Source: Candidatus Entotheonellaceae bacterium (GTDB taxonomy: Bacteria > Tectomicrobia > Entotheonellia > Entotheonellales > Entotheonellaceae). Taken from it: a stretch of 64,000 bases of DNA. The position numbers were made by a program, and so were the translations under genes. The stretch is taken from the NCBI GenBank assembly GCA_965238075.1, contig OZ250173.1:352001-416000 (forward strand). Direction: 5' to 3'. Under the pieces are notes generated by a model. That model had not been told where the DNA came from, ran no database searches, and worked only from the letters and a program-made list of their open reading frames with translations. Positions 6,703 to 25,957 of the stretch are shown here, in pieces; within the stretch, counting starts at the first letter, position 1; each line of letters begins with the position of its first letter.

Positions 6703-6744
6703 AGAGCCTGCCCCGGACTTGATCCGGGGTACGGGGCAGGCTCT
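6703..6744. repeat. Palindromic repeat with a 13-bp perfect stem
   Basis: AGAGCCTGCCCCG...CGGGGCAGGCTCT; degenerate second copy at about 31474-31510 shares TGATCCGGGGT.CGGGGCAGGCT. Confidence 0.65.
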
Positions 6745-6792
6745 GTTTGGGGTCGGTTGCGGAAAAGGGCGAAATGACACGCTAAGGAGAAG

Positions 6793-9221
6793 TCAACGTC
6801 TTTTTGGCCACCTGTATTCGCCGGTAAGCAGGATGTGGCCCCATCCGAGGGGCGAGGTGTGTGGCAGGAGCTCGGGGACGACGGGCAGACCGGCGTGTCT
6901 TCGCCTGGCGACCGCTTCGCCCAGCCGGGCGATGTTCCAGTAGATGACGATGGCAGCGAGCAGGTTGAGGCCTGCCATGCGGTAGTGCTGTCCCTCCGTG
7001 CTGCGATCCCTGATTTTTCCCTGGCGGCCGATGCGCAAGGCGTTCTTCAGGGCGTGGTGGGATTCTCCCTTGTTCAGGCCGATCTGGGCACGCCGCTGCA
7101 TGGCCGGGTCCAGCGCCCAATCGATCATGAAGAGGGTGCGCTCGATGCGGCCGATTTCGCGCAGCGCCGCGGCGAGGTCATTACGGCGCGGGTAGGCGGC
7201 CAGCTTGCGCAGGATCAGACTCGGGGCGACCGTGCCGGCGGCCAGGGTCGCCCCCAGCCGCAGAACGTCGGGCCAGTTCGACGCGATCAGCGATTGTCGG
7301 AGTTTGCCGCCGATCGGGCCGCGCAGTTCCTTCGGGCAAGCGGCCGGCTCGAAGACGGAGATGCGCTTGGAAGGCAGATCGCGGATGCGCGGCACGAACC
7401 GGTAACCCAGGATCGAGGTGACGGCGAAGACGTGGTCGGTAAAACCGCCGGTGTCGGCGTACTGCTCGCGGATACGGCGGCCGGTCTCGTTCATCAGCAG
7501 GCCGTCCAGGATGTAAGGCGCTTCGTTGACCGTCGCCGGGATGATCTGCGTGGCGAAGGGTCCGAAGCGGTCCGACACGTGCGTGTACGCCTTCAGCCTG
7601 GGCTCGCTGCCGTACCTGGCATTGACCAGGTTCATGGCCTCGCCCTGGCGCGTGGTCGGAAAGAACTGGCCGTCGCTCGACGCGGTGGTTCCCATCCCCC
7701 AGAACGTCGCCATGGGCAGCTTGGCCTGTGCCTCGATCACCATCGCCAGCGCACGGTCCATGGCTTCGCCTTCGACATGCCAGCGCGACAGCCGCATGAG
7801 TTCCCAGTAGTCGTGGGTGTTGGTGGCGTCGGCCATCTTGCCGAGGCTGAGATTGATGCCTTCGGCCAGGAGCACGTTGAGCAAGCCGATCTTGTCGTTG
7901 CAGGGGGCGCCGGTGCGCAGATGGGACAGGACGGCAACCCCCCATAGCCTCTTTTCGCCCTTGGGCTGCGCATCGAGATAACGGTGCCGCTTGGAGGCCG
8001 GGCGCAGAAAGGCTCTCGGGCTGCTGTGGCTGCTGCCGTCGCGGATCAGCCTGGCGGCATCCAGCAGAGGCCGTGCAACCGGGGCGGCCTGGATATCGAG
8101 CGCCCGCAGCATTCGCGGGGCATAGCGTCGAAGGCGCCCGTGTCCCTGCGCCACGTGGGCCAGCGGGTCGTTCGACATCGTATCGGTCAAGCGTGCGGCC
8201 ACAGCCACCAGGTCGCTCAGCCCGTCCCAGCCCAGTTTTCCCGAAACGGCCTGTTCAAGCATGGCGGGTTGATGCCGGGCTTCGAGCAGTGCCTCGCCGA
8301 GATCGGCGAAGGATCGCAGGGTCCGGCGGACGGTTTTCCTGGCATCGTCGATGCGGGCATCGCAGAGTTTTTCTGCCTCGCGCCAGGTTCTGCTGACGAT
8401 GCGGTCATGGGTCTCGACGAGGGCGTCCGCAAGACCCGCCTGCCATTCCACGGCGCACACCGCCAGAATGGCCAGGCGGCGGCTGTCGAGCATCTCCCGC
8501 AGGCCGTCCGCGAAATAGCGTTCTCCCTGCCGCCTCAGGCGGGCAACGCGGTGGGCGGGTACGCCCTCGATGATCCGCTCGGAGAGACCGAGACGCTGCA
8601 GAAACTCCAGTCGATCCAGCAAGCGCCCGGCGACCGCGGCATTGTTGCCCGGCTCGGACTGCCGCAGCCAGACGAACCGCGTCACGCGGTTGTCCAGTGT
8701 TTCCGAAAGCAGCCCGTCGAGAGCCGTTCGTGCCGCGGTGTCGAGACGGCAGGCAGGATGAGTTGCCTTCGGCGGCATTCCTCGACGAGCCGTCTTGCCA
8801 GCTCCTCGTTGGACCGCGCCTCCTCGGCCTGCCCGTCGAGCCAGCCCTTCAGGTGCCGCGCCGCGCGTCCGGCGAACGTGCGGTAGCCGTAGATCGAACG
8901 CAGCGCCGTCATGTGTTCCTGGCGCGTCTGTCGCCGCGCCGCATAGGGCAGCAGCGACTCCACCGCGATGCCCAGCTGGACACCGACGAATTCCACTACC
9001 GGCGACGGGATCAGTTCGCCGGGCTGCAGCACGCGACCGGGATGGCGTAGGGCACAAAGCTGAAGGGCGAAGCCGAGGCGGTTTTCGGCGCGGCGGCGCC
9101 GGCCGATGTGTTCCAGATCATCATCAGCCAAGGTGTAGTGCTTTCGGAGCGACGTCTCATCGACCGGGAGATCGACCAAGGCGGAGCGCTGGCGGTCCGT
9201 GAGAATGGTTCGGCGGGGCAT
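6793..9221 (-). pseudogene. tnpA: Tn3-family transposase, frameshifted and internally deleted
   Basis: N-terminus (RRRAENRLGFALQLC) and C-terminus (SSDGQ, YADTGG, GLNKGE) are in different frames; about 810 codons versus roughly 1000 aa typical. Confidence 0.9.
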
Positions 9222-9263
9222 GGTTGGGTCAGTTCCGGCAAAGGTTGGACAGGCGACATGGGA

Positions 9264-9854
9264 TCAGGCGTCGAGGAGCCGTCCTTGAGCGTGCCGTCGG
9301 CGTGCAGGTAATGGTAGAGCGTGCTCGTGGGAATGCTGCCAAGCTCACGGCAGATGTCGGGTATCGAGCGCGTCTGGTCGGCCATGAGGTTCTGGGCGTA
9401 GCGCAGCTTCTCGGGGGTCATGACGCGGGGACGGCCGCCTTTGCGTCCACGCCCGCGCCGCCTTGACACCCTCGCGGATGCGCTGTCGGATGACGTTGCG
9501 TTCCATTTCCGCGAAGGCTGCCTGGATCTGCAGAAAGGCGCGGCCCGCCGGCGCGGTGGTGTCCATCGGTGAATTGAGGGCGCGGAACCCGACGCCGCGG
9601 TGGTCGAGGTCGTCGATCAGGGCGATGAGTTCGCCCGCCCGGCGGCCCAGACGGTCGAGGTCGAGGACGACAAGGACGCCGCCCTGGCGCAGGTAATCGA
9701 GACAGGCGGCCAAGTTCGGTCGGTCAGAGGCGGCGCCGGAAGCACGGTCCTCGAACACGCGCTCGCATCCAGCGTCGTTGAGGGCGTCGAGCTGGCGGTC
9801 GAGTATCTGACGGCCTTCGGCGGTGGATACGCGGGCGTAGCCAATGAGGCCCAT
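9264..9854 (-). pseudogene. tnpR: Serine resolvase, frameshifted near 9460
   Basis: IGYARVST, LDRLGR, AFAEMERN; the GRKGGRP-HTH tail is in another frame. Confidence 0.88.
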
Positions 9855-9993
9855 GGGGTGATGTCCTCGCGGTCTCGAAAACGTTGTCTTGAGCGTATTT
9901 TATCGTAAAAAGATATTTTCGGGGTTGTCGGGAAGATTTCGCAGCAAAAGGCGGGTCGTGAGGGCGTACTTCAGCGAGTCACGACAAAGAACT

Positions 9994-11666
9994 CAGACTG
10001 TGTGAAAACACCCTTTCTTGAAACCCACATACCGAACACGGGATACTGAGAACCATGGCACATATCACAGGTGATGACCGTTCTCAGATTCTGCTTCTTC
10101 CAGAAACCGTGGAAGACTATGGCGGCCCCGACAACCCGGTGCGCTTCGTCGACGCGTTCGTCGATGGCCTTGATCTGGAGGCTGCCGGCTTCCGGCGCGT
10201 ACAACCTAAAGCGACAGGACGACCGGGGTACGATCCGGGCGATCTCCTGAAGCTCTACATCTATGGGTACCTCAACCGCATCCGTTCCAGCCGGCGCCTG
10301 GAGGTGGAGACCCACCGAAACCTCGAGGTGATCTGGCTTCTGCGTCGCCTCCGGCCCGACTTCAAGACCATCGCGGATTTCCGGCGCGACAACCGCAGGG
10401 CGTTTCGCCAAGTGTTCCGGAGCTTTGTATCGCTGTGCCGCGAACTCGGCCTGTACGGACGTGAACTCCTGGCTGTCGACGGCACCCGCATCAAGGCGGT
10501 AAACAGCCGCAAGCGCAATTTCACGCGGGCGGGGCTCGACCACAGGCTCAAGAAGACTGACGAGCGCCTTGAGCGCTACCTGAAGGAAATGGACGAAGCG
10601 GACGCCCAGGATTCCGGCGGCAGCGCGAAATCCACCACCGACCTCGCGGCGAAAATCGAATCGCTGCGTAAACGCCGAGCAGCGCTTCAGGCTCATAAGA
10701 AGGCGCTCGAACAGAGCGGCGAGAGTCAACTCTCGCTCACCGACCCGGATGCCCGGGCGATGGAAGCACGCACCCGCGTTGCAGTGGGGTACAACGCCCA
10801 GATCGCGGTGGACACCAAACACAATCTGATCGCTGAACAGCAGGTCCACAGCAAGGTCTCGGACCTGGGCCTGCTGACCGAAACTGCGAGCGTGGCGCGT
10901 GGGAATCTCAAGGCGGAACGCATGGCTGTCGTGGCTGACAAAGGCTACTTCAAGATCGAGGACATCGAAGCTTGCGAAGCCGAGGGCGTAACGCCGTACG
11001 TGCCAAAGCCCAACCGCAGCCCTGCCCGTTCAGCCGGCCGCTTCCCGAAGTCGGCGTTCCATTACGACAAGGAAACCGACACCTATATATGTCCCAACGG
11101 CCAGCGCCTGTCGCCCACGTACGCCACGAAAGTCCGCAACACGCCTTTGACATGTTACGCCAATTTCCAGGCTTGTCGGGAATGCGGCATACGCGAGCGC
11201 TGCACGAAGTCATATTACCGAGGCATTGTGCGCTACGTGAACGAGGCCGTTCTGGAACGCATGGCGGAACGGCTCGCCAGGCGCCCCGAGATCCTGAAGC
11301 GCCGTGGCGAGAGCGTGGAGCATCCTTTCGGCTCCATCAAACAGTGGATGGGACAGGGCGCGTTCCTGATGCGGCGCCTTGAGAACGTGCGCGGCGAGTT
11401 CAGCCTTACCGCCCTTGCGTACAACATGCGGCGCGCGATCAACCTTGTCGGAGTTCCCACGCTCGTTGAAGCCGCGCACCCCTGATCGGGGTGTCCCCGG
11501 CCAAATCTCACCTCACACCGCGATTGAACCACCCAGTGCCTGCCATGAGCGACAAATCCGAGCCGCCTGGATTCCCCTGCAGCCGAATTATGGATGCTAC
11601 CAATCGACGACCGCATCACCTCTGAAGAGCTCAGGTCTCGCGCCCCGTGACTTTTCGCACGGTCTG
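9994..11666 (+). mobile_element. IS1182-family insertion sequence
   Basis: Ends CAGACTGTGTGAAAA and TTTTCGCACGGTCTG; 4-bp direct repeat AACT on both sides. Confidence 0.9.
10055..11485 (+). CDS. IS1182-family transposase
   Basis: RSSRRLE, PDFKTIADFR, VDGTRIKA, TDPDAR, ADKGY, VEHPFGSIK; intact 476 aa. Confidence 0.92.
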   Translation: MAHITGDDRSQILLLPETVEDYGGPDNPVRFVDAFVDGLDLEAAGFRRVQPKATGRPGYDPGDLLKLYIYGYLNRIRSSRRLEVETHRNLEVIWLLRRLRPDFKTIADFRRDNRRAFRQVFRSFVSLCRELGLYGRELLAVDGTRIKAVNSRKRNFTRAGLDHRLKKTDERLERYLKEMDEADAQDSGGSAKSTTDLAAKIESLRKRRAALQAHKKALEQSGESQLSLTDPDARAMEARTRVAVGYNAQIAVDTKHNLIAEQQVHSKVSDLGLLTETASVARGNLKAERMAVVADKGYFKIEDIEACEAEGVTPYVPKPNRSPARSAGRFPKSAFHYDKETDTYICPNGQRLSPTYATKVRNTPLTCYANFQACRECGIRERCTKSYYRGIVRYVNEAVLERMAERLARRPEILKRRGESVEHPFGSIKQWMGQGAFLMRRLENVRGEFSLTALAYNMRRAINLVGVPTLVEAAHP

Positions 11667-12078
11667 AACTGTTTGTCGTGGACCCGGAAGCGGGTTATAG
11701 GGGGCGGAAAAGAGAGCCCTCGAGGCTTAGAGTGTCATTTCGCCCTTTTCCGCAACCGACCCCGTTTTGTGAGAGGGTCCGATGCGGGTAGGCGGCATTC
11801 TGACGGTCTCGGAACCAGAGTGCCTACCCCCCGCTGTGCCTGAGGCGCCTCCGCCATCGCCGGTCCAGTTAAACGGGAAGTGCGTGAAGCTGGGCTCCAG
11901 GCTACGCCGTCTAACCCCACTGATTCGATGGGCAAGTTTCCAAGCCGAGACTTTCTTGGACCCAGCGGCCCAACATCGCGGGCAAGGCATAACTTGCTTA
12001 TCCCACAAGGTCGGGATGGATCACTTTGAGGGTGATGGCTCAGCACGGCTCATGGCGTAGATAAGCCTGCCGGACATT

Positions 12079-13167
12079 TCAGGCATGCTGAAGAGGCTTG
12101 GCAGGCCGTCTTGCCCTGTTCTGCCGTCCCGTTTTGAAGCCCACCAGTCGTTGTTGCTCCTCATCCCATAACTTGAGTGACGCCAGGCGCCAACATTGCC
12201 CGAGTTTTATGCGCGGCGGATGTTGCAACTGTGGGATGCCTCGAAAGCAGGCCTCGAGGTTGTAATTGGGAATGCGCGCGCTCAGATGGTGGATGTGGTG
12301 AAAGCCGATATTGGCGCTGAACCACTGCAGAAGACGGGGCAACTCGAGATAGCTACTTCCCAGCAGGGCCGCTTGGTGGAAATTCCACTCGTCGTGCGGG
12401 CGCCAATAGGTGTCCTCAAATTGATGCTGCACGTAAAACAACAAGCCTCCGCAACACGACGCAATCAGCATGATGGGGACCAGGATCATCAGAAAGGACG
12501 TGAAACCGATGGTGAACGCCATCACAACGGCGACCAGCGCCAGCATGGCATTCGTCAGATGGGCGCTGCGCCACTCGCGCTTCCAAGCCGACGGGATCCT
12601 CCACGGAAAGCGGTGAAACACCAGAAAAAGCAAGAAAACGCCAATGCCAAACATGAACAGCGGGTGCCGATAAAGACGGTACAGGCGCTGTCGTGCCTTG
12701 GGGAGCGCGGCGTACTCCCTGACGGTCAAGGTTTTGACATCGCCGTGCCATCTGCGATTGAGGTCGCCGGAGGTGGCATGGTGGATGAGGTGCGTTTTGC
12801 GCCAGAAGGCGAAGGGCGCCAGCGTCAGCACGCCGAGCACGAACCCCAGCACGTTATTCGCCCTGCGCGAGGAAAAGAACGACCCGTGCGCGCAATCGTG
12901 CAGGATCATGAACAACCGCAGGTAAAAGCCGGCGGCCGGCACGGCCAGCAAGCACGTCAGCCAGTAGCCGTACTGCAGGCTATGGAACATCAGGTACCAG
13001 CACATGGCGTAGGGCAGTACCGAGGTGAGGATCTGGCAGATTGCGCGGCGCCGGCTCGAACGCTGGTAGGGCGCTAACGCCCCTCCTATCGAACTGTCCG
13101 CCGGTGGCATTTTTGCGGGGCTGGCAGCGGGTTGTACGTCCTTTTCCGGGGGATGTTTGGCAGTCAT
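12079..13167 (-). CDS. Membrane fatty-acid desaturase
   Basis: Three His boxes HDCAH, HLIHH, HHIHH; RIPNYNL; hydrophobic segments. Confidence 0.92.
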   Translation of the reverse strand: MTAKHPPEKDVQPAASPAKMPPADSSIGGALAPYQRSSRRRAICQILTSVLPYAMCWYLMFHSLQYGYWLTCLLAVPAAGFYLRLFMILHDCAHGSFFSSRRANNVLGFVLGVLTLAPFAFWRKTHLIHHATSGDLNRRWHGDVKTLTVREYAALPKARQRLYRLYRHPLFMFGIGVFLLFLVFHRFPWRIPSAWKREWRSAHLTNAMLALVAVVMAFTIGFTSFLMILVPIMLIASCCGGLLFYVQHQFEDTYWRPHDEWNFHQAALLGSSYLELPRLLQWFSANIGFHHIHHLSARIPNYNLEACFRGIPQLQHPPRIKLGQCWRLASLKLWDEEQQRLVGFKTGRQNRARRPAKPLQHA

Positions 13168-16600: not shown

Positions 16601-17272
16601 TTAAGCGTTGCTGAGTTGACGGCCGGCGTCTTTCGGCGACCCGGTGCCGTTGGCGTATTGACCTCGGGGCATGAGATGGCGAGAGCGCATGAAATGATAG
16701 AGCGTCGAGTGGTCTACTCCGGTGATCTTGGCAATCGACGCCTTTGAGACCTTGAGGTCCAGGAGCCTTTGAATTTCGTCTTCCTTGCCATTGAATCTTG
16801 ACTGCCCCAATTGTCCCTTTGGACGCCCCAGGCGTTTACCCGAAGCCCGTGCTGCCGCCAGTCCTTCCTTCGTTCGCATGGAAATGAGTTCCCGCTCGAT
16901 TTCCGCAAACAAGCCGAACAACGTCACCATGACCTTGCTGTGCAAATCCTGCTTGCCCGCCAGACGAATGCCTTCCTTGATCGCCAGAAACCGGACCTGT
17001 TGCTTCAGCAAGGCATCCACCGTGGCAATCACCTCGCCTACCGAGCGGCCCATGCGGCTCAACTCGCTGACAACGAGGGTGTCGCCCGGCTCCAGCCGTG
17101 CCATCCAGAGGTCGATCTGTCGTGCTTTGGGCGAGCGCCTCGACGACACGCTGAGCTCCATGAAGGCGCTGACCTCGAACTTTTCCTGGCGGGCAAACTC
17201 CAGGATCGCCAGGCGTTGATTTCCGACATCCTGCGAGTCCTTCGAGACGCGTAAATAGGCGATCGTCTTCAT
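16601..17272 (-). CDS. Serine recombinase / resolvase
   Basis: IAYLRVS, SELSRMGRS, LFAEIERELIS, LGRP, C-terminal HTH. Confidence 0.92.
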   Translation of the reverse strand: MKTIAYLRVSKDSQDVGNQRLAILEFARQEKFEVSAFMELSVSSRRSPKARQIDLWMARLEPGDTLVVSELSRMGRSVGEVIATVDALLKQQVRFLAIKEGIRLAGKQDLHSKVMVTLFGLFAEIERELISMRTKEGLAAARASGKRLGRPKGQLGQSRFNGKEDEIQRLLDLKVSKASIAKITGVDHSTLYHFMRSRHLMPRGQYANGTGSPKDAGRQLSNA

Positions 17273-17624
17273 GGCGCGGCCATTCTGTGGAAGCTATCCT
17301 TTATTTGGGACTATTTCCTACGGTATGGATGGAGTAATCCTGAGCCTTTCCTTTCGGCATATCCGTTTGGAAGAAACGTTCGTTTTGTCCTGACAAGTCA
17401 TGGCCGCCATCGACCCTGAGAGCCCCTCTCGTTTGATCCGAGGCACCGGGTTCCCGGAAACTGAAGGCATGATTGATTGGAAGTTTGCCAACAGTATCCG
17501 GTCCTTTGATGACACGGCGCCCCACCGGTTGATCCATCCAGGCTTACAAGAGGTCATCCAGTCAGAGTTCGCCCCCGTGTACAATTCTTTGTACAAATCT
17601 TGCGATGATGCCAGCATCTCTACA

Positions 17625-20717: not shown

Positions 20718-21106
20718 TTGAAGCTGTCCTCCCGTTTCCTGCCGGTATAGAAACTTGCGAACTGAACCTTGTCGCCGAAACCACGTTGGCGGTTGTCTTC
20801 TTGTATTTAATTCCATCAACCTGAAGATTTGCTGAACATTCGCGGCCCGGCAACGTCTCTGCGAACGAAAGCGGAACTGAGGTGGCGCGCGCCCCGCCCT
20901 CGACCCCGACGTTGCCCCCTGGCGCAAACGACCACGGCTACGCCCGGTACGGGGACCAAGCAGCAGGATTCCTTAACGACCAAAATTGTTCCATTGCTAT
21001 CGGAAAGCCAACATGGCCCCATTGCGTCCGGTCGGCGGCGTGTGGCAAGGTATCCGGGCGCGTGAATCGCCACGCGCCAATGGTTTGCTCACAGGGAGGA
21101 TGCAGG

Positions 21107-21550
21107 ATGCAGAAACGTCGCTTCATGGGTATTGGTATCACTGTTCTGGGTGGTCTTTTGTTGCTGTCTGTGCCCGACGAGAGCGTGGCGGGCGCCCACC
21201 TCATCTACGAAAGAATCGGTTACCAGTCTGGTGTGGAAACCGTGGTCGATTATTTCCTTGCCAATGTCGGCAGGGATAACCGGGTCAACGGTCGTTTCGC
21301 CGACACGGACATGGCCCAACTCAGAGGCTACCTGATCGACCAGGTGTGTGAAGCCACTGACGGCCCGTGCACCTATAAGGGGAAAAACATGCGGGAGGCC
21401 CATGCGGGCATGGGAATTACCGAGGCGGAGTTTGCCATCATCGCCGGGCATTTCGCCGCGGCGATGGAGAAGGCCGGTGTCAGCGCGTCGGATCACGCCG
21501 CGATTATGGGTGTGCTCTCGGGCATGCACGACGACATCGTTGGGCACTGA
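21107..21550 (+). CDS. Group I truncated hemoglobin with an N-terminal signal-like sequence
   Basis: YERIG, GPCTYKGKNMREAHAGMGITEAEF. Confidence 0.88.
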   Translation: MQKRRFMGIGITVLGGLLLLSVPDESVAGAHLIYERIGYQSGVETVVDYFLANVGRDNRVNGRFADTDMAQLRGYLIDQVCEATDGPCTYKGKNMREAHAGMGITEAEFAIIAGHFAAAMEKAGVSASDHAAIMGVLSGMHDDIVGH

Positions 21551-21799: not shown

Positions 21800-23055
21800 T
21801 AGTGTCCTGGTCTTGAAGTTCAAGTTGAGTGTCCTGGTCTTGAATTATGAGTACAGATTAAGAACCTGCGCGATTGCCACACATTTCGGAAGCCGGAAGC
21901 GGAGGCAACAGAGCAGAGCCTTCGAGTCGCCATACGATCTCCGGAGGCAACACATGAGCAGAGCCGCTTGTCGGCGACCGAACGGCGGGAACTCGAAAGC
22001 CTGGCACGGCGGCGCAAAACCGCCCAGGGTCTGGCACGGCGGGCGCGTATCATCTTGGCGGCCGCACAGGGACTCGAAAACAAGGCCATTGTGGAGCGCT
22101 TCGGCGCCGACGCCAACACAGTCGGCAAGTGGCGCCGACGTTTCGCCGCACAAAGGCTCGACGGCCTCTACGATGAGCCCCGGCCCGGAACGCCGAGACG
22201 CATCGGCGATGACGACATCACCGAGGCGGTTCGCCGCACCCTGGAAGAAACCCCGTCCGACGCCACCCACTGGAGCCTGCGTTCCATGGCCCGCGCCGTG
22301 GGCCATGCCCCCTCGACCATCCACCGCATCTGGCGCGCCTTCGGATTACAGCCGCAGCGCAGCGAGACCTTCAAGCTCTCCAGCGATCCTGTCGATAAAG
22401 TGCGCGATATCGTCGGCCTGTACTTGGCGCCGCCCGACCGAGCCTTGGTACTGTGCGTCGATGAAAAAAGCCAGATCCAGGCTCTGGAGCGCACCCAGCC
22501 GATCGTGCCCATGCGACCGGGCCAAGCGGAGCGGCGGAGCCACGACTACAAACGTCACGGCACGACGACGTTGTTCGCAGCCCTCGACGTCGCCACCGCT
22601 TCGGTCATCGGGCAGTGCCTGCCGCGTCACCGATCACAGGAATTCCTGACCTTCCTTGGCATGATCGAGGGCAACGTTCCCAGCGACCTCGACTTGCACT
22701 TGGTGATGGACAACTATGCAACTCACAAGACTGAGGCGGTGCAGCGTTTCTTTGCCCGCCATCCGCGCTGGCACGTCCACTTTACGCCGACCGGGGCCTC
22801 ATGGTTGAATCAGGTGGAGCGTTTCTTTGCCCTGTTGACCGAAAAACAACTTCGGCGTGGCGTGCATCGCAGCACCGAGGAACTCGAAGCGGCTATCGAG
22901 CACTACATCGCCACCGTCAATGCGGAGCCCAGGCCGTTTCGCTGGACCCAATCGGCTAACGACATTGTCGCTACGATCAAGCGTTTCTGCCTGCGAACCT
23001 TGGAGACCGCTGACCGTCAGAACATAATCAATAAAACTTCGGAATCGGAACACTA
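21800..23055 (+). mobile_element. IS630-family insertion sequence
   Basis: CTAGTGTCCTGGTCTTGAAGTT and AACTTCGGAATCGGAACACTAG ends; TA target. Confidence 0.88.
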
Positions 23056-23056
23056 G
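21968..23056 (+). CDS. IS630-family transposase
   Basis: [34 protein letters not shown]; start uncertain. Confidence 0.92.
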
Positions 23057-24776: not shown

Positions 24777-25638
24777 GGCCCAGTAACAACATAGCTGTCA
24801 TAGAGTGCCAAATTGACGGTGCTCGCCGCAGAGCACTCTGACTCACCCTTTGACTCATGTCTCCCACAGTCCCTCGAATCGAACGCCAGCGACACGCGTA
24901 TAGTGAACCGTGTGTTTGGGGTCTCGATGCCCAAGATGGTCCTGGATCAGCCTCAGGTCATAGCCTTGATTGGCCAGATAAAACCCACAGGAATGCCGCA
25001 GCATGTGGGGATTAGGCGCACCGAGTCCGGCACGCCGGGCAGCGCGCCGATGAGGTAGTTGACCGATTGTCGGGTCATCGGCTGCCCGCGCTCAGACAGA
25101 AACAGCCACGGCAACGCGTCGTGGCGCGTGTGCAGGTAGCGCTTGATCGCCCGCAGTTCATCGCCGGCGATCGGATGTTCCACAGACAGGCCACTTTTGA
25201 GGCGCCGAATCCACACCCAGGCGCGTTTGAGGTTCAGGTCCTGGCGCCGCATGCGGACGGCTTCGCTGACGCGCAAGCCGTGGCGATACATCATGAGCAA
25301 CAGCAGAAAATCCCGGACGCCATGGCGGTCTTTCCTGGCCGCTTCAAGGAGGGCATCCATTTCGGCATCGCTTAGGAAGTTGCGGGCGCGTTCATGCCCG
25401 TCCGTCAGCCAGACATCCTCACTTTTTACATTTCGCCTTCTGGGCACGACGTCTCACCCCCTCTCGAAGCCGCGCGGTGACTCGCCCTGTTACCCGGCAC
25501 TCTTGACAAAAGGCGTGTTAGGTAAAGAGAGTCAGGCAGCCACCTGTCTTTCAATTGACAAGCGCTCACGCATGTCCAGCTCAAAGATGCCGTAGCCCGA
25601 AGTCTGGCACCTTATGACCGCTATGTTGTTACTGGGCC
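24777..25638 (-). mobile_element. 862-bp unit bounded by 34-bp inverted repeats, carrying only a tyrosine recombinase
   Basis: GGCCCAGTAACAACATAGC(T/G)GTCATA(GA/AG)GTGCCA at 24777-24810 and 25605-25638, 31/34 identical. Confidence 0.75.
24855..25447 (-). pseudogene. FimB/FimE-like tyrosine recombinase, frameshifted near 25040
   Basis: YRHGLRVSE in one frame; [21 protein letters not shown] in another frame ending at TGA 24855. Confidence 0.85.
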
Positions 25639-25688
25639 GAAAAGGTGGGTCGTGAGAGCGTACCGCAGCGTGTCGCGACAAAGAGTTG

Positions 25689-25840
25689 GATACTGTTGGC
25701 GAACCCCAATTGAATCGCCAAGTGGCCAAGTTTGGACAATGGCCGCGAGCCCCGACATGGGCCTCACCATTGGCATTGCTGGCTCCCTCCTGTACGACAA
25801 GGGGGGCAAATGACAGTAAGCAGGGTTTGCCAACAGTATC
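25689..25840. mobile_element. 152-bp MITE
   Basis: 18-bp TIRs GATACTGTTGGC(G/A)AACCC; 6-bp direct repeat GAGTTG at 25683-25688 and 25841-25846. Confidence 0.8.
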
Positions 25841-25957
25841 GAGTTGTTTGTCGTGAATGATTCCTGCCATCCAGACCCGGTCGAGAGAGCTGCGAGGGTA
25901 GGGAAAGAGGGCTCGGGTGCGTGGAGTGTCTTTTCGCCCTTTTCCGCAACCGACCCC

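Follow-up and report, generated by a model that had tools for sequence, protein, structure and literature searches.

Two different mobile elements, both assigned to IS1182, a family of insertion sequences (ISs), sit exactly on the dyad of one and the same palindrome in two relatives of a Tn3-family transposon. Both lie in a 64,000-nucleotide stretch of the genome of a Candidatus Entotheonellaceae bacterium (assembly GCA_965238075.1, contig OZ250173.1, positions 352,001 to 416,000; hereafter the window, in whose coordinates positions are given). The palindrome measures 24 bp, with 9-bp arms and a 6-bp spacer, and is homologous in the two hosts, elements 1 and 2. From its position, repeats and mosaicism, it is most likely the crossover subsite (site I) of the transposon's resolution site, res. 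It is probable, in our view, that IS1182-family transposases have an intrinsic preference for palindromes composed of an A-tract, a core and a T-tract, and that site I of res acts as a local hot spot for them. Throughout, G000 denotes the source genome (3.35 Mb), G007 and G011 are genomes of the same genus, and L numbers are individual loci. Note that the order is represented by 14 genomes only.

The geometry of the two insertions is precise. In element 1, the palindrome lies between the resolvase gene tnpR and the right terminal repeat. Its left arm CACGACAAA (9980-9988) is followed by a G (9989) and the first copy of the target site duplication (TSD) AACT (9990-9993), which together span 9980-9993. 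On the other side of the inserted IS (9994-11666), the segment 11667-11680 holds the second AACT (11667-11670), a G (11671) and the right arm TTTGTCGTG (11672-11680). In element 2, the homologue of 9946-9993 (25640-25688) ends with the left arm CGCGACAAA (25674-25682) and the TSD GAGTTG (25683-25688). A 152-bp miniature inverted-repeat transposable element (MITE; 25689-25840, plus strand) comes next, followed within 25841-25855 by the second GAGTTG (25841-25846) and the right arm TTTGTCGTG (25847-25855). The original prediction held that removal of the IS or the MITE restores the palindromes and that both insertions fall in the 6-bp loop; the coordinates and six empty sister sites bear this out. 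It also described the upstream flanks as homologous, and the pattern of these flanks indeed occurs exactly twice in the window, at 9946 and 25640, and in 0 of 100 shuffles. Palindromes of the 10-6-10 type with at least 9 of 10 paired positions arise at about 1e-4 of random window positions.

Sister sites were surveyed by using the intact region of L172, a sibling in G011, as a query against the 14 family genomes. Fifteen matches were returned, five of which were left out: L215 and L217, where homology ends about 25 nt short of the palindrome, L218 (contig end), L223 (a weak match of 27 nt) and L221 (the far side of element 1). Six of the 10 assessable sites are empty (L172/L209, L213, L214/L156, L220, L212 and L216), some of them with degenerate arms. 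In L172, CACGACAAA, the spacer GAGTTG and TTTGTCGTG run uninterrupted, and such natural empty sites in sister genomes confirm the reconstruction of the palindrome before insertion. The remaining four sites are occupied at the dyad by the window IS, the window MITE, a MITE copy in G011 (L011/L222) and, in G007, a 30-nt remnant of an autonomous-IS-type end (L211), a search for the rest of which found only the remnant. The left arm is adjoined by the left end of the MITE in the window and by its right end in L011, and the orientations of the four occupants divide 2:2. The window and L011 copies of the MITE agree at 95%, compared with 72-86% for the res DNA that surrounds them.

L156 (313-722, G007:C125) is an element of about 410 bp with the same Tn3-type repeats at its ends, between which it holds only the res-distal region with an intact palindrome; it is therefore a miniature, non-autonomous Tn3 derivative. 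The tnpR-upstream copies L215 (G000:C1:167116-167219) and L217 (G011:C1:1644829-1644933) lose homology at the same point, about +103, which is the break some 25 nt before the palindrome; the DNA beyond it is unrelated.

The res region of transposons of the Tn3, gamma-delta and Tn21 types lies upstream of tnpR and consists of several subsites built from one half-site, the most symmetric of which is distal to tnpR. The candidate res described here has the same layout, although its half-site (CACGACAAA read inward) differs from the TGTCYNNTA of those systems. The centre of the palindrome lies about 139 bp upstream of the tnpR ATG. The tnpR-proximal part of the candidate res in element 1 (9855-9979) contains half-sites TTGTCTTG near 9885, TTGTCGGG near 9924 and GGGTCGTG near 9953. 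The half-site 8-mer TTGTCGTG, allowing at most one mismatch on both strands, is common to the palindrome and two tnpR-proximal sites and is found, in the 215-bp stretch upstream of tnpR, 4, 4, 2 and 4 times in the four loci compared, against 0.12-0.20 in shuffles (4 against 0.18 for L172). The offsets of the half-sites are conserved in all four, at about +24-30, +71-80, and +118-127 with +134-143. Related resolvase genes with 73-75% nucleotide identity, one on a Paracoccus plasmid and one on Acidiphilium pACRY04, have a related palindrome in the same place. The Acidiphilium version reads CACGAAAAA, GAAGTG, TTTGTCGTG, and the Paracoccus version has 10-bp arms built on GCGACAA / TTGTCGC. Upstream of the resolvase, the palindromes span +118 to +151 (L172, L213, Acidiphilium) and +136 to +165 (Paracoccus). 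Furthermore, the sisters combine two types of left flank with two types of right flank in all four possible ways, and the switch occurs at the palindrome. Overall, the palindrome lies at a conserved distance upstream of tnpR and is the most symmetric of several subsites sharing a half-site, as is typical of site I. The proposal that it is res-like is thus upheld by its conserved offset, the repeated half-sites and the mosaic boundary, and from the same features we infer that resolvase binds there. A terminator was considered and rejected, given the missing T-run after the palindrome and its position upstream of tnpR.

Element 1 (6749-11763) is a small transposon in which tnpR and the transposase gene tnpA run in the same direction, and which a Tn3-type transposase, 38-nt repeats and a resolvase domain place in the Tn3 family. 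Its left (6749-6786) and right (11726-11763) terminal inverted repeats (TIRs) are 97% complementary. The tnpA gene (6793-9057, minus strand) encodes an N-terminally shortened protein of 754 amino acids (aa) that matches Pfam DDE_Tnp_Tn3 at 8e-120 and NCBIfam NF033527 with 641 bits (cut-off 500), the best stretch covering model positions 577-954 of 954. The tnpR gene (9345-9854, minus strand) encodes a serine resolvase of 169 aa with a Pfam Resolvase N-terminal domain (3.7e-40), the catalytic domain being the only one detected with Pfam; its product is 92% identical over aa 1-144 to that of the G011 sibling (L172, a 215-aa frame). With its shortened TnpA and a TnpR limited to the catalytic domain, element 1 is decayed. 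Its flanks, TGTTT (6744-6748) and GTTTT (11764-11768), contain no clean 5-bp duplication, only a shifted 4-nt match. In the sibling L172, an insert of about 362 bp (2147-2508) splits the right terminal repeat between ...CATTTCGC and CCTTTTCC....

Element 2 is a remnant of about 160 bp that comprises the res-distal region and an inverted repeat at 25926-25957 (97% complementary to 6749-6780). A full transposon was ruled out because the remnant has neither a tnpA nor a tnpR of its own and its terminal repeat has no partner. Consequently, the two sister transposons originally proposed are one decayed transposon and one fragment. On the left, the homology of element 2 is limited by an 862-bp unit (24777-25638) that adjoins 25640. 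This unit has 34-nt inverted repeats at its ends (91% complementary) and an open reading frame (ORF; 24953-25447, minus strand) for a truncated tyrosine recombinase of 164 aa, which matches only the initial two thirds of the Phage_integrase profile and, against tyrosine-invertase models, stays below the cut-offs. Repeat sequences like those of the unit lie 21-23 bp from MITE copies in G011 (L013 and L016).

The IS within element 1 (plus strand) is 1673 bp long and is bounded by TIRs CAGACTGTGTGAAAA and CAGACCGTGCGAAAA, which match at 13 of 15 positions, and by the AACT duplication. Its transposase gene (10055-11485, plus strand) encodes an apparently full-length protein of 476 aa with matches to Pfam DUF772, DDE_Tnp_1_6 and DDE_Tnp_1. 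The score of 408.6 bits with NF033551 (cut-off 270; model positions 3-487 of 488), together with the TIRs and the 4-bp duplication, places the IS in the IS1182 family. It is single-copy in G000, and one relative, with 69% identity, was found in the genomes of the order, in G008. Six relatives on plasmids have 66-70% identity, the nearest being Paracoccus elements with 70% nucleotide identity. Their 4-bp duplications are exact in L203, L205 and L208 and match at 3 of 4 positions in L204, L206 and L207. Two of them, L204 (1191-3413, an Agrobacterium plasmid) and L205 (1183-3411, a Lichenihabitans plasmid), are elements of about 2.2 kb with 4-bp duplications that hold an apparent GNAT acetyltransferase gene within their terminal repeats. 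The targets of L205 and L208 are homologous palindromes on different plasmids.

The MITE, with TIRs GATACTGTTGGCGAA and GATACTGTTGGCAAA, is single-copy in G000 and has five near-full copies in G011 and G007 with 89-95% identity. All four copies that retain both original flanks show 6-bp direct repeats, one of which matches at 5 of 6 positions. A fifth two-flank copy, L011, has no direct repeat, its second flank having been lost to later rearrangement. Ends in common with autonomous ISs of the family, multiple copies, target duplications and the lack of coding sequence define it as a MITE. Its segment from nucleotide 53 to 152 aligns (73-76%) with the 3' end and adjoining TIR of a G007 transposase gene of the IS1182 family, and the 15-nt TIR of the MITE also bounds IS fragments in that genome. 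One of these fragments, L017, encodes the C-terminal 272 aa of the parent transposase and carries DDE_Tnp_1_6. The other, L026, has a 408-aa N-terminal frame behind a MITE-type TIR that reaches 212.9 bits with the IS1182 model (cut-off 270) and is cut by the contig end; a 43% relative of the parent exceeds that cut-off with 316.5 bits. The nearest named relative of the parent transposase is ISMno10 of Methylobacterium nodulans pMNOD02 (57% aa identity, with 97% of the query covered). A search of G000 with the parent fragment of 272 aa found no cognate transposase at E <= 1e-10. The MITE derives from an ISMno10-like IS that G000 lacks. The search for an autonomous IS with the TIRs of the MITE was accordingly rewarded by the fragments in G007 and by ISMno10, whose TIR is near-identical, and by none in G000.

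The model scores, the DDE_Tnp_1_6 domain and the relationship to ISMno10 place both inserted elements in the IS1182 family. The window IS transposase and the parent transposase of the MITE are about 29% identical over 100 aa, the TSDs are 4 and 6 bp, and the TIRs differ, so that the two represent different branches of the family. The single IS/MITE lineage that had been postulated therefore stands at the level of the family and dissolves below it. The loose resemblance noted between the MITE end and the IS end is real, with 9 of 15 positions matching. On pMNOD02 (L237, 1946-3821), ISMno10 is directly followed by a mini element of 121 bp that has the ends of ISMno10; a CGACCG duplication common to both stands between them and indicates tandem insertion into a duplicated target.

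Where else these elements land was determined from several samples. In the family genomes, 15 insertion sites of the MITE branch were counted, six of which are associated with res: three in the res-like palindrome and three upstream of other serine recombinase genes, at about 147 bp (L013), 14 bp (L026) and 225 bp (window 17484-17498). The last is a solo IS/MITE-type end TTTGCCAACAGTATC with an adjacent CGGTCC (17484-17504, minus strand), upstream of an ORF for an invertase-like serine recombinase (16601-17272); a search near 17484 found only a 16-26 nt remnant of an IS. The other nine sites lie outside the palindrome, and none of them falls in the 300 bp upstream of a serine recombinase gene. 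For eight of them, a recombinase was not found within about 4 kb, and the nearest to the second flank of L011 is at 3.4 kb. At three of the non-res sites (L014, L016 and L018), an arm matches that of a resolvase-upstream site at 10-12 of 12 nt. In the flank consensus of the branch, a 6-bp core, which often reads CGNCCG, stands between an A-tract and a T-tract. The arm symmetry score, defined as the number of complementary positions of 10, has a null expectation of 2.6 ± 1.4; away from res, it was 2, 6, 6, 6, 9, 2 and 5 in the MITE branch, and among the plasmid relatives of the window IS it was 5, 4, 8, 3, 5 and 6. None of those six plasmid relatives adjoins an annotated recombinase.

Unoccupied sites of similar make-up complement this picture. 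AAA-N6-TTT sites, several with a CGNNCG core, occur 101-135 bp upstream of six of the 29 resolvase genes of the family, and three of the 29 genes have such sites scoring at least 7 of 10, compared with 0.3% of random 300-bp windows. The G000 genome contains four AAA-CGNNCG-TTT sites (1.4 expected), two of which lie within 300 bp of its four serine-recombinase loci. It also has seven AAA-N6-TTT sites in which 8 or more of the 10 arm positions pair, besides the two disrupted res palindromes. An unoccupied AAA-CGTTCG-TTT site is found in the window at 17365-17394 (core 17377-17382), 105 bp upstream of ORF 16601-17272, with the solo IS/MITE end about 110 bp further out.

Metagenomes extended the sample of targets. 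A junction scan with AAACGNNCG plus the TIR as query returned at least 121 stretches, of which 80 loci were taken, giving 85 junctions in 79 loci. For the consensus, 76 distinct flanks were used; the query fixed AAACGNNCG alone, and the positions outside it were scored. At positions -17 to -12, the bases T, G, T, C, C and A were found in 39, 36, 43, 30, 31 and 35 flanks, and an A at -10 in 43, which yields the extended consensus TGTCCARAAAA before the CGNNCG core. Fifteen complete sites had a mean symmetry of 4.1 of 8, against 2.0 expected. A serine recombinase gene was present anywhere in 4 of the 79 loci and started within 150 bp of the target in two, L264 (about 141 bp) and L271 (about 20 bp). 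Of 66 junctions whose outer flank measures 400 bp or more, one has a recombinase start within 450 bp on that side. Such adjacency lends no support to the idea that the metagenomic consensus sites are mostly res sites. A metagenome scan with the 29-nt left end of the MITE gave no match. A scan of 596 Gb of contigs with the 16-nt TIR, for which about 280 chance matches of a 16-mer are expected, gave at least 82 matches, counted in the 80 loci that were retrieved. Most of these resemble chance matches or distant elements, and only the two-ended pairs L058, L075, L063/64 and L092/93 were used. The pair L055/56 was kept out of the counts of insertion sites, its flanks being an inverted extension of the TIR with no duplication.

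The mechanism that we favour runs as follows. The 24-bp palindrome would be site I of res in a small group of Tn3-family elements, distal to tnpR and adjoining the inner side of the terminal repeat. Two IS1182-family elements have inserted on its dyad: an autonomous IS with 4-bp duplications, and a MITE, the shortened derivative of an ISMno10-like IS, with duplications of 6 bp. Their transposases would choose symmetric sites, in which an A-tract, a short core and a T-tract are flanked by imperfect inverted arms; the mode of recognition we infer from the target statistics. The duplicated bases would be the spacer or its middle four because the staggered cuts are symmetric about the centre, and the palindrome would be a hot spot in the genus because it is an unusually good instance of the preferred shape. 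Each insertion splits the candidate crossover site and rides within a Tn3 remnant. Local clustering is explicable in these terms, since resolvase sites account for a large part of what suits the transposases in these genomes. Several observations weigh against this reading. Of the non-res targets sampled, two barely qualify as palindromes (2 of 10). The spacers GAGTTG and GAACTG do not fit the usual CGNNCG core of the MITE branch, and sequence preference alone therefore does not fully predict the hot spot. The excess at res (6 of 15 sites; 2 of 4 motifs in G000) could reflect something more specific than a preference for shape. As for the crossover site itself, the mosaic of left and right flanks could also have arisen by homologous exchange inside the 24 conserved bp.

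The alternatives concern the history of the occupied sites, the nature of the palindrome and the means by which it is found. A single ancestral insertion, inherited or copied among the sisters, would account for three junctions that carry an identical string of left arm, GAGTTG and first bases of the element. We regard it as very improbable, given that element 1 contains a different IS with a 4-bp TSD, the end in L211 is of the IS type and not the MITE type, and six of the sister sites carry no insert. As originally claimed, the occupied sites were hit independently, because elements, TSD lengths and orientations (opposite in the two MITE copies) differ and because the flanks have diverged far beyond the MITE copies (72-86% against 95%). 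It is also quite unlikely that the palindrome is no resolvase site at all, for example the operator of a different protein or a structural hairpin, which the ISs would have hit as a hairpin or cruciform in the way IS1272 does at terminators. Folded as single-stranded DNA, the intact site does reach -8.3 kcal/mol (z = -4.2) and the Paracoccus version -15.6 kcal/mol, and the available part of PMC4923244 documents hairpin targeting in the IS1182 family. However, the distance of the palindrome from tnpR has been kept in four diverged loci, the half-site recurs at two proximal positions, the mosaic boundary falls at the palindrome, and the T-run after it is missing; moreover, the weaker palindromes (L156, -5.0 kcal/mol; Acidiphilium, -5.8 kcal/mol) keep sequence rather than stability.

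A more serious rival, which we nevertheless hold to be unlikely, is that the transposase or a host factor senses the complex of resolvase and DNA at site I, as Tn5053 and Tn402 do, resolvase sites being the adaptive target and the palindromic consensus no more than an image of them. In its favour, 4 of 10 sister sites are occupied, the insertions at L013, L026 and window 17484 lie upstream of other recombinase genes, and the metagenomic L264 and L271 repeat the same two offset classes. The unoccupied sites upstream of 6 of the 29 resolvase genes and the two recombinase-associated motifs of the four in G000 point the same way, as does the arm adjoining L018, identical over 12 nt to that of such a resolvase-upstream site. 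Against it stand the nine of 15 family-genome sites away from recombinase genes and the palindrome, the rarity of recombinases in the metagenomic loci and the lack of an annotated one beside the plasmid relatives. Insertions of a res-site hunter would concentrate at resolvase sites wherever the element occurs, and here the fractions are 6/15 locally and 2/79 and 0/6 more widely. The homing to resolvase sites that was originally suggested is accordingly a local tendency and not a rule. The insertions are also precise to the dyad and occur in both orientations, which fits direct recognition of symmetric DNA, and, because elements 1 and 2 look decayed, one cannot take for granted that a working resolvase was present when they were hit. 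A further and bolder idea, which we put forward only tentatively, is that the ISMno10-like branch comprises sequence-directed res-site hunters. Their target of about 28 bp (TGTCCARAAAA, CGNNCG and a mirror arm) would copy the architecture of a resolvase crossover site; landing at the exact crossover point, they would knock out the resolution of cointegrates or multimers and would be spread by the Tn3-family elements and plasmids that carry them, and the branch of the window IS would have the same habit with 4-bp cuts.

Comparison with known systems helps to place the intrinsic preference for palindromes that we favour. The original prediction stated that some IS1182-family members target palindromes, and this is already in print: IS1272 and TnSha1 insert in hairpins, one hairpin having been hit several times independently and in both orientations, and Siguier et al. 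2015 are cited for palindrome targeting by other members (available parts of PMC4923244 and PMC5678879). The elements studied here resemble them in IS family, inverted-repeat targets, repeated hits at one site and use of both orientations. In contrast, as far as the same parts of these sources describe it, IS1272 deletes part of the hairpin without a duplication and targets mostly terminators without a sequence consensus, whereas here insertion is precise, duplicates the 6-bp spacer or its central 4 bp, and falls in a candidate recombinase site with an A-tract/T-tract consensus. ISPse1 of Paracoccus (IS1182 family; 1653 bp, inverted repeats matching 16/16, 4-bp duplication), as described in part of PMC3281130, is like the 1673-bp window IS in size and duplication, a likeness that is one of description. 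The TIR of ISMno10 is nearly that of the MITE, and its TSD is likewise 6 bp long (CGACCG, flanked by an A-tract and a T-tract); unlike the MITE, it is autonomous and 1749 bp long, and no annotated recombinase lies within 2 kb of it on pMNOD02.

Tn5053 and Tn402 require bound resolvase, enter in a single orientation at several neighbouring positions and duplicate 5 bp of the target; their res-site hunting was reportedly described by Minakhina et al. in 1999. According to the available parts of PMC7765201 and PMC12217951, these 'res site hunters' land in the res regions of Tn21-type transposons and of plasmids and then travel along. The elements analyzed here likewise land in res regions and are carried along, but they are single-gene DDE ISs or MITEs rather than Tn7-like machinery, they use one exact position in both orientations, and most of their other copies lie off resolvase genes. 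IS4321 and IS5075, of the IS1111 family, insert in the 38-bp terminal repeats of Tn21-family transposons. They too home to a conserved feature of Tn3-family transposons, and differ in their terminal-repeat target, DEDD transposase, RNA-guided choice of site and lack of a duplication. Targeting by IS1111/IS110 elements is seekRNA-guided, as stated in the part of PMC11187229 that was available. Among the titles and abstracts returned by literature searches, none links IS1182-family elements to res sites.

Other features of the window bear on its wider history. Counterparts of its fatty-acid desaturase and globin genes (12079-13167 and 20882-21550) adjoin MITE-bearing loci in G011 (L231 and L232), which suggests an island shared, in rearranged form, between G000 and G011. 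An ORF for an IS630-type transposase (DDE_3) lies at 21968-23056.

The choice of target decides where ISs accumulate and what carries them. The liking of the IS1182 family for palindromes was already known, and most of the targets so far described are terminators. In the present case, the palindrome chosen is probably where a transposon's own resolution system makes its crossover, and two branches of the family have hit it at the same base pair in four or more sister elements. The extended target consensus of the ISMno10-like branch is testable and could help to annotate the boundaries of MITEs and ISs in metagenomes. Should the link to res fail, the insertions would be an ordinary case of a known family preference. 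If it holds, these elements would provide a simple, single-protein counterpart to the res hunters of the Tn5053 type, and a route by which Tn3-family elements may lose resolution and gather nested ISs.

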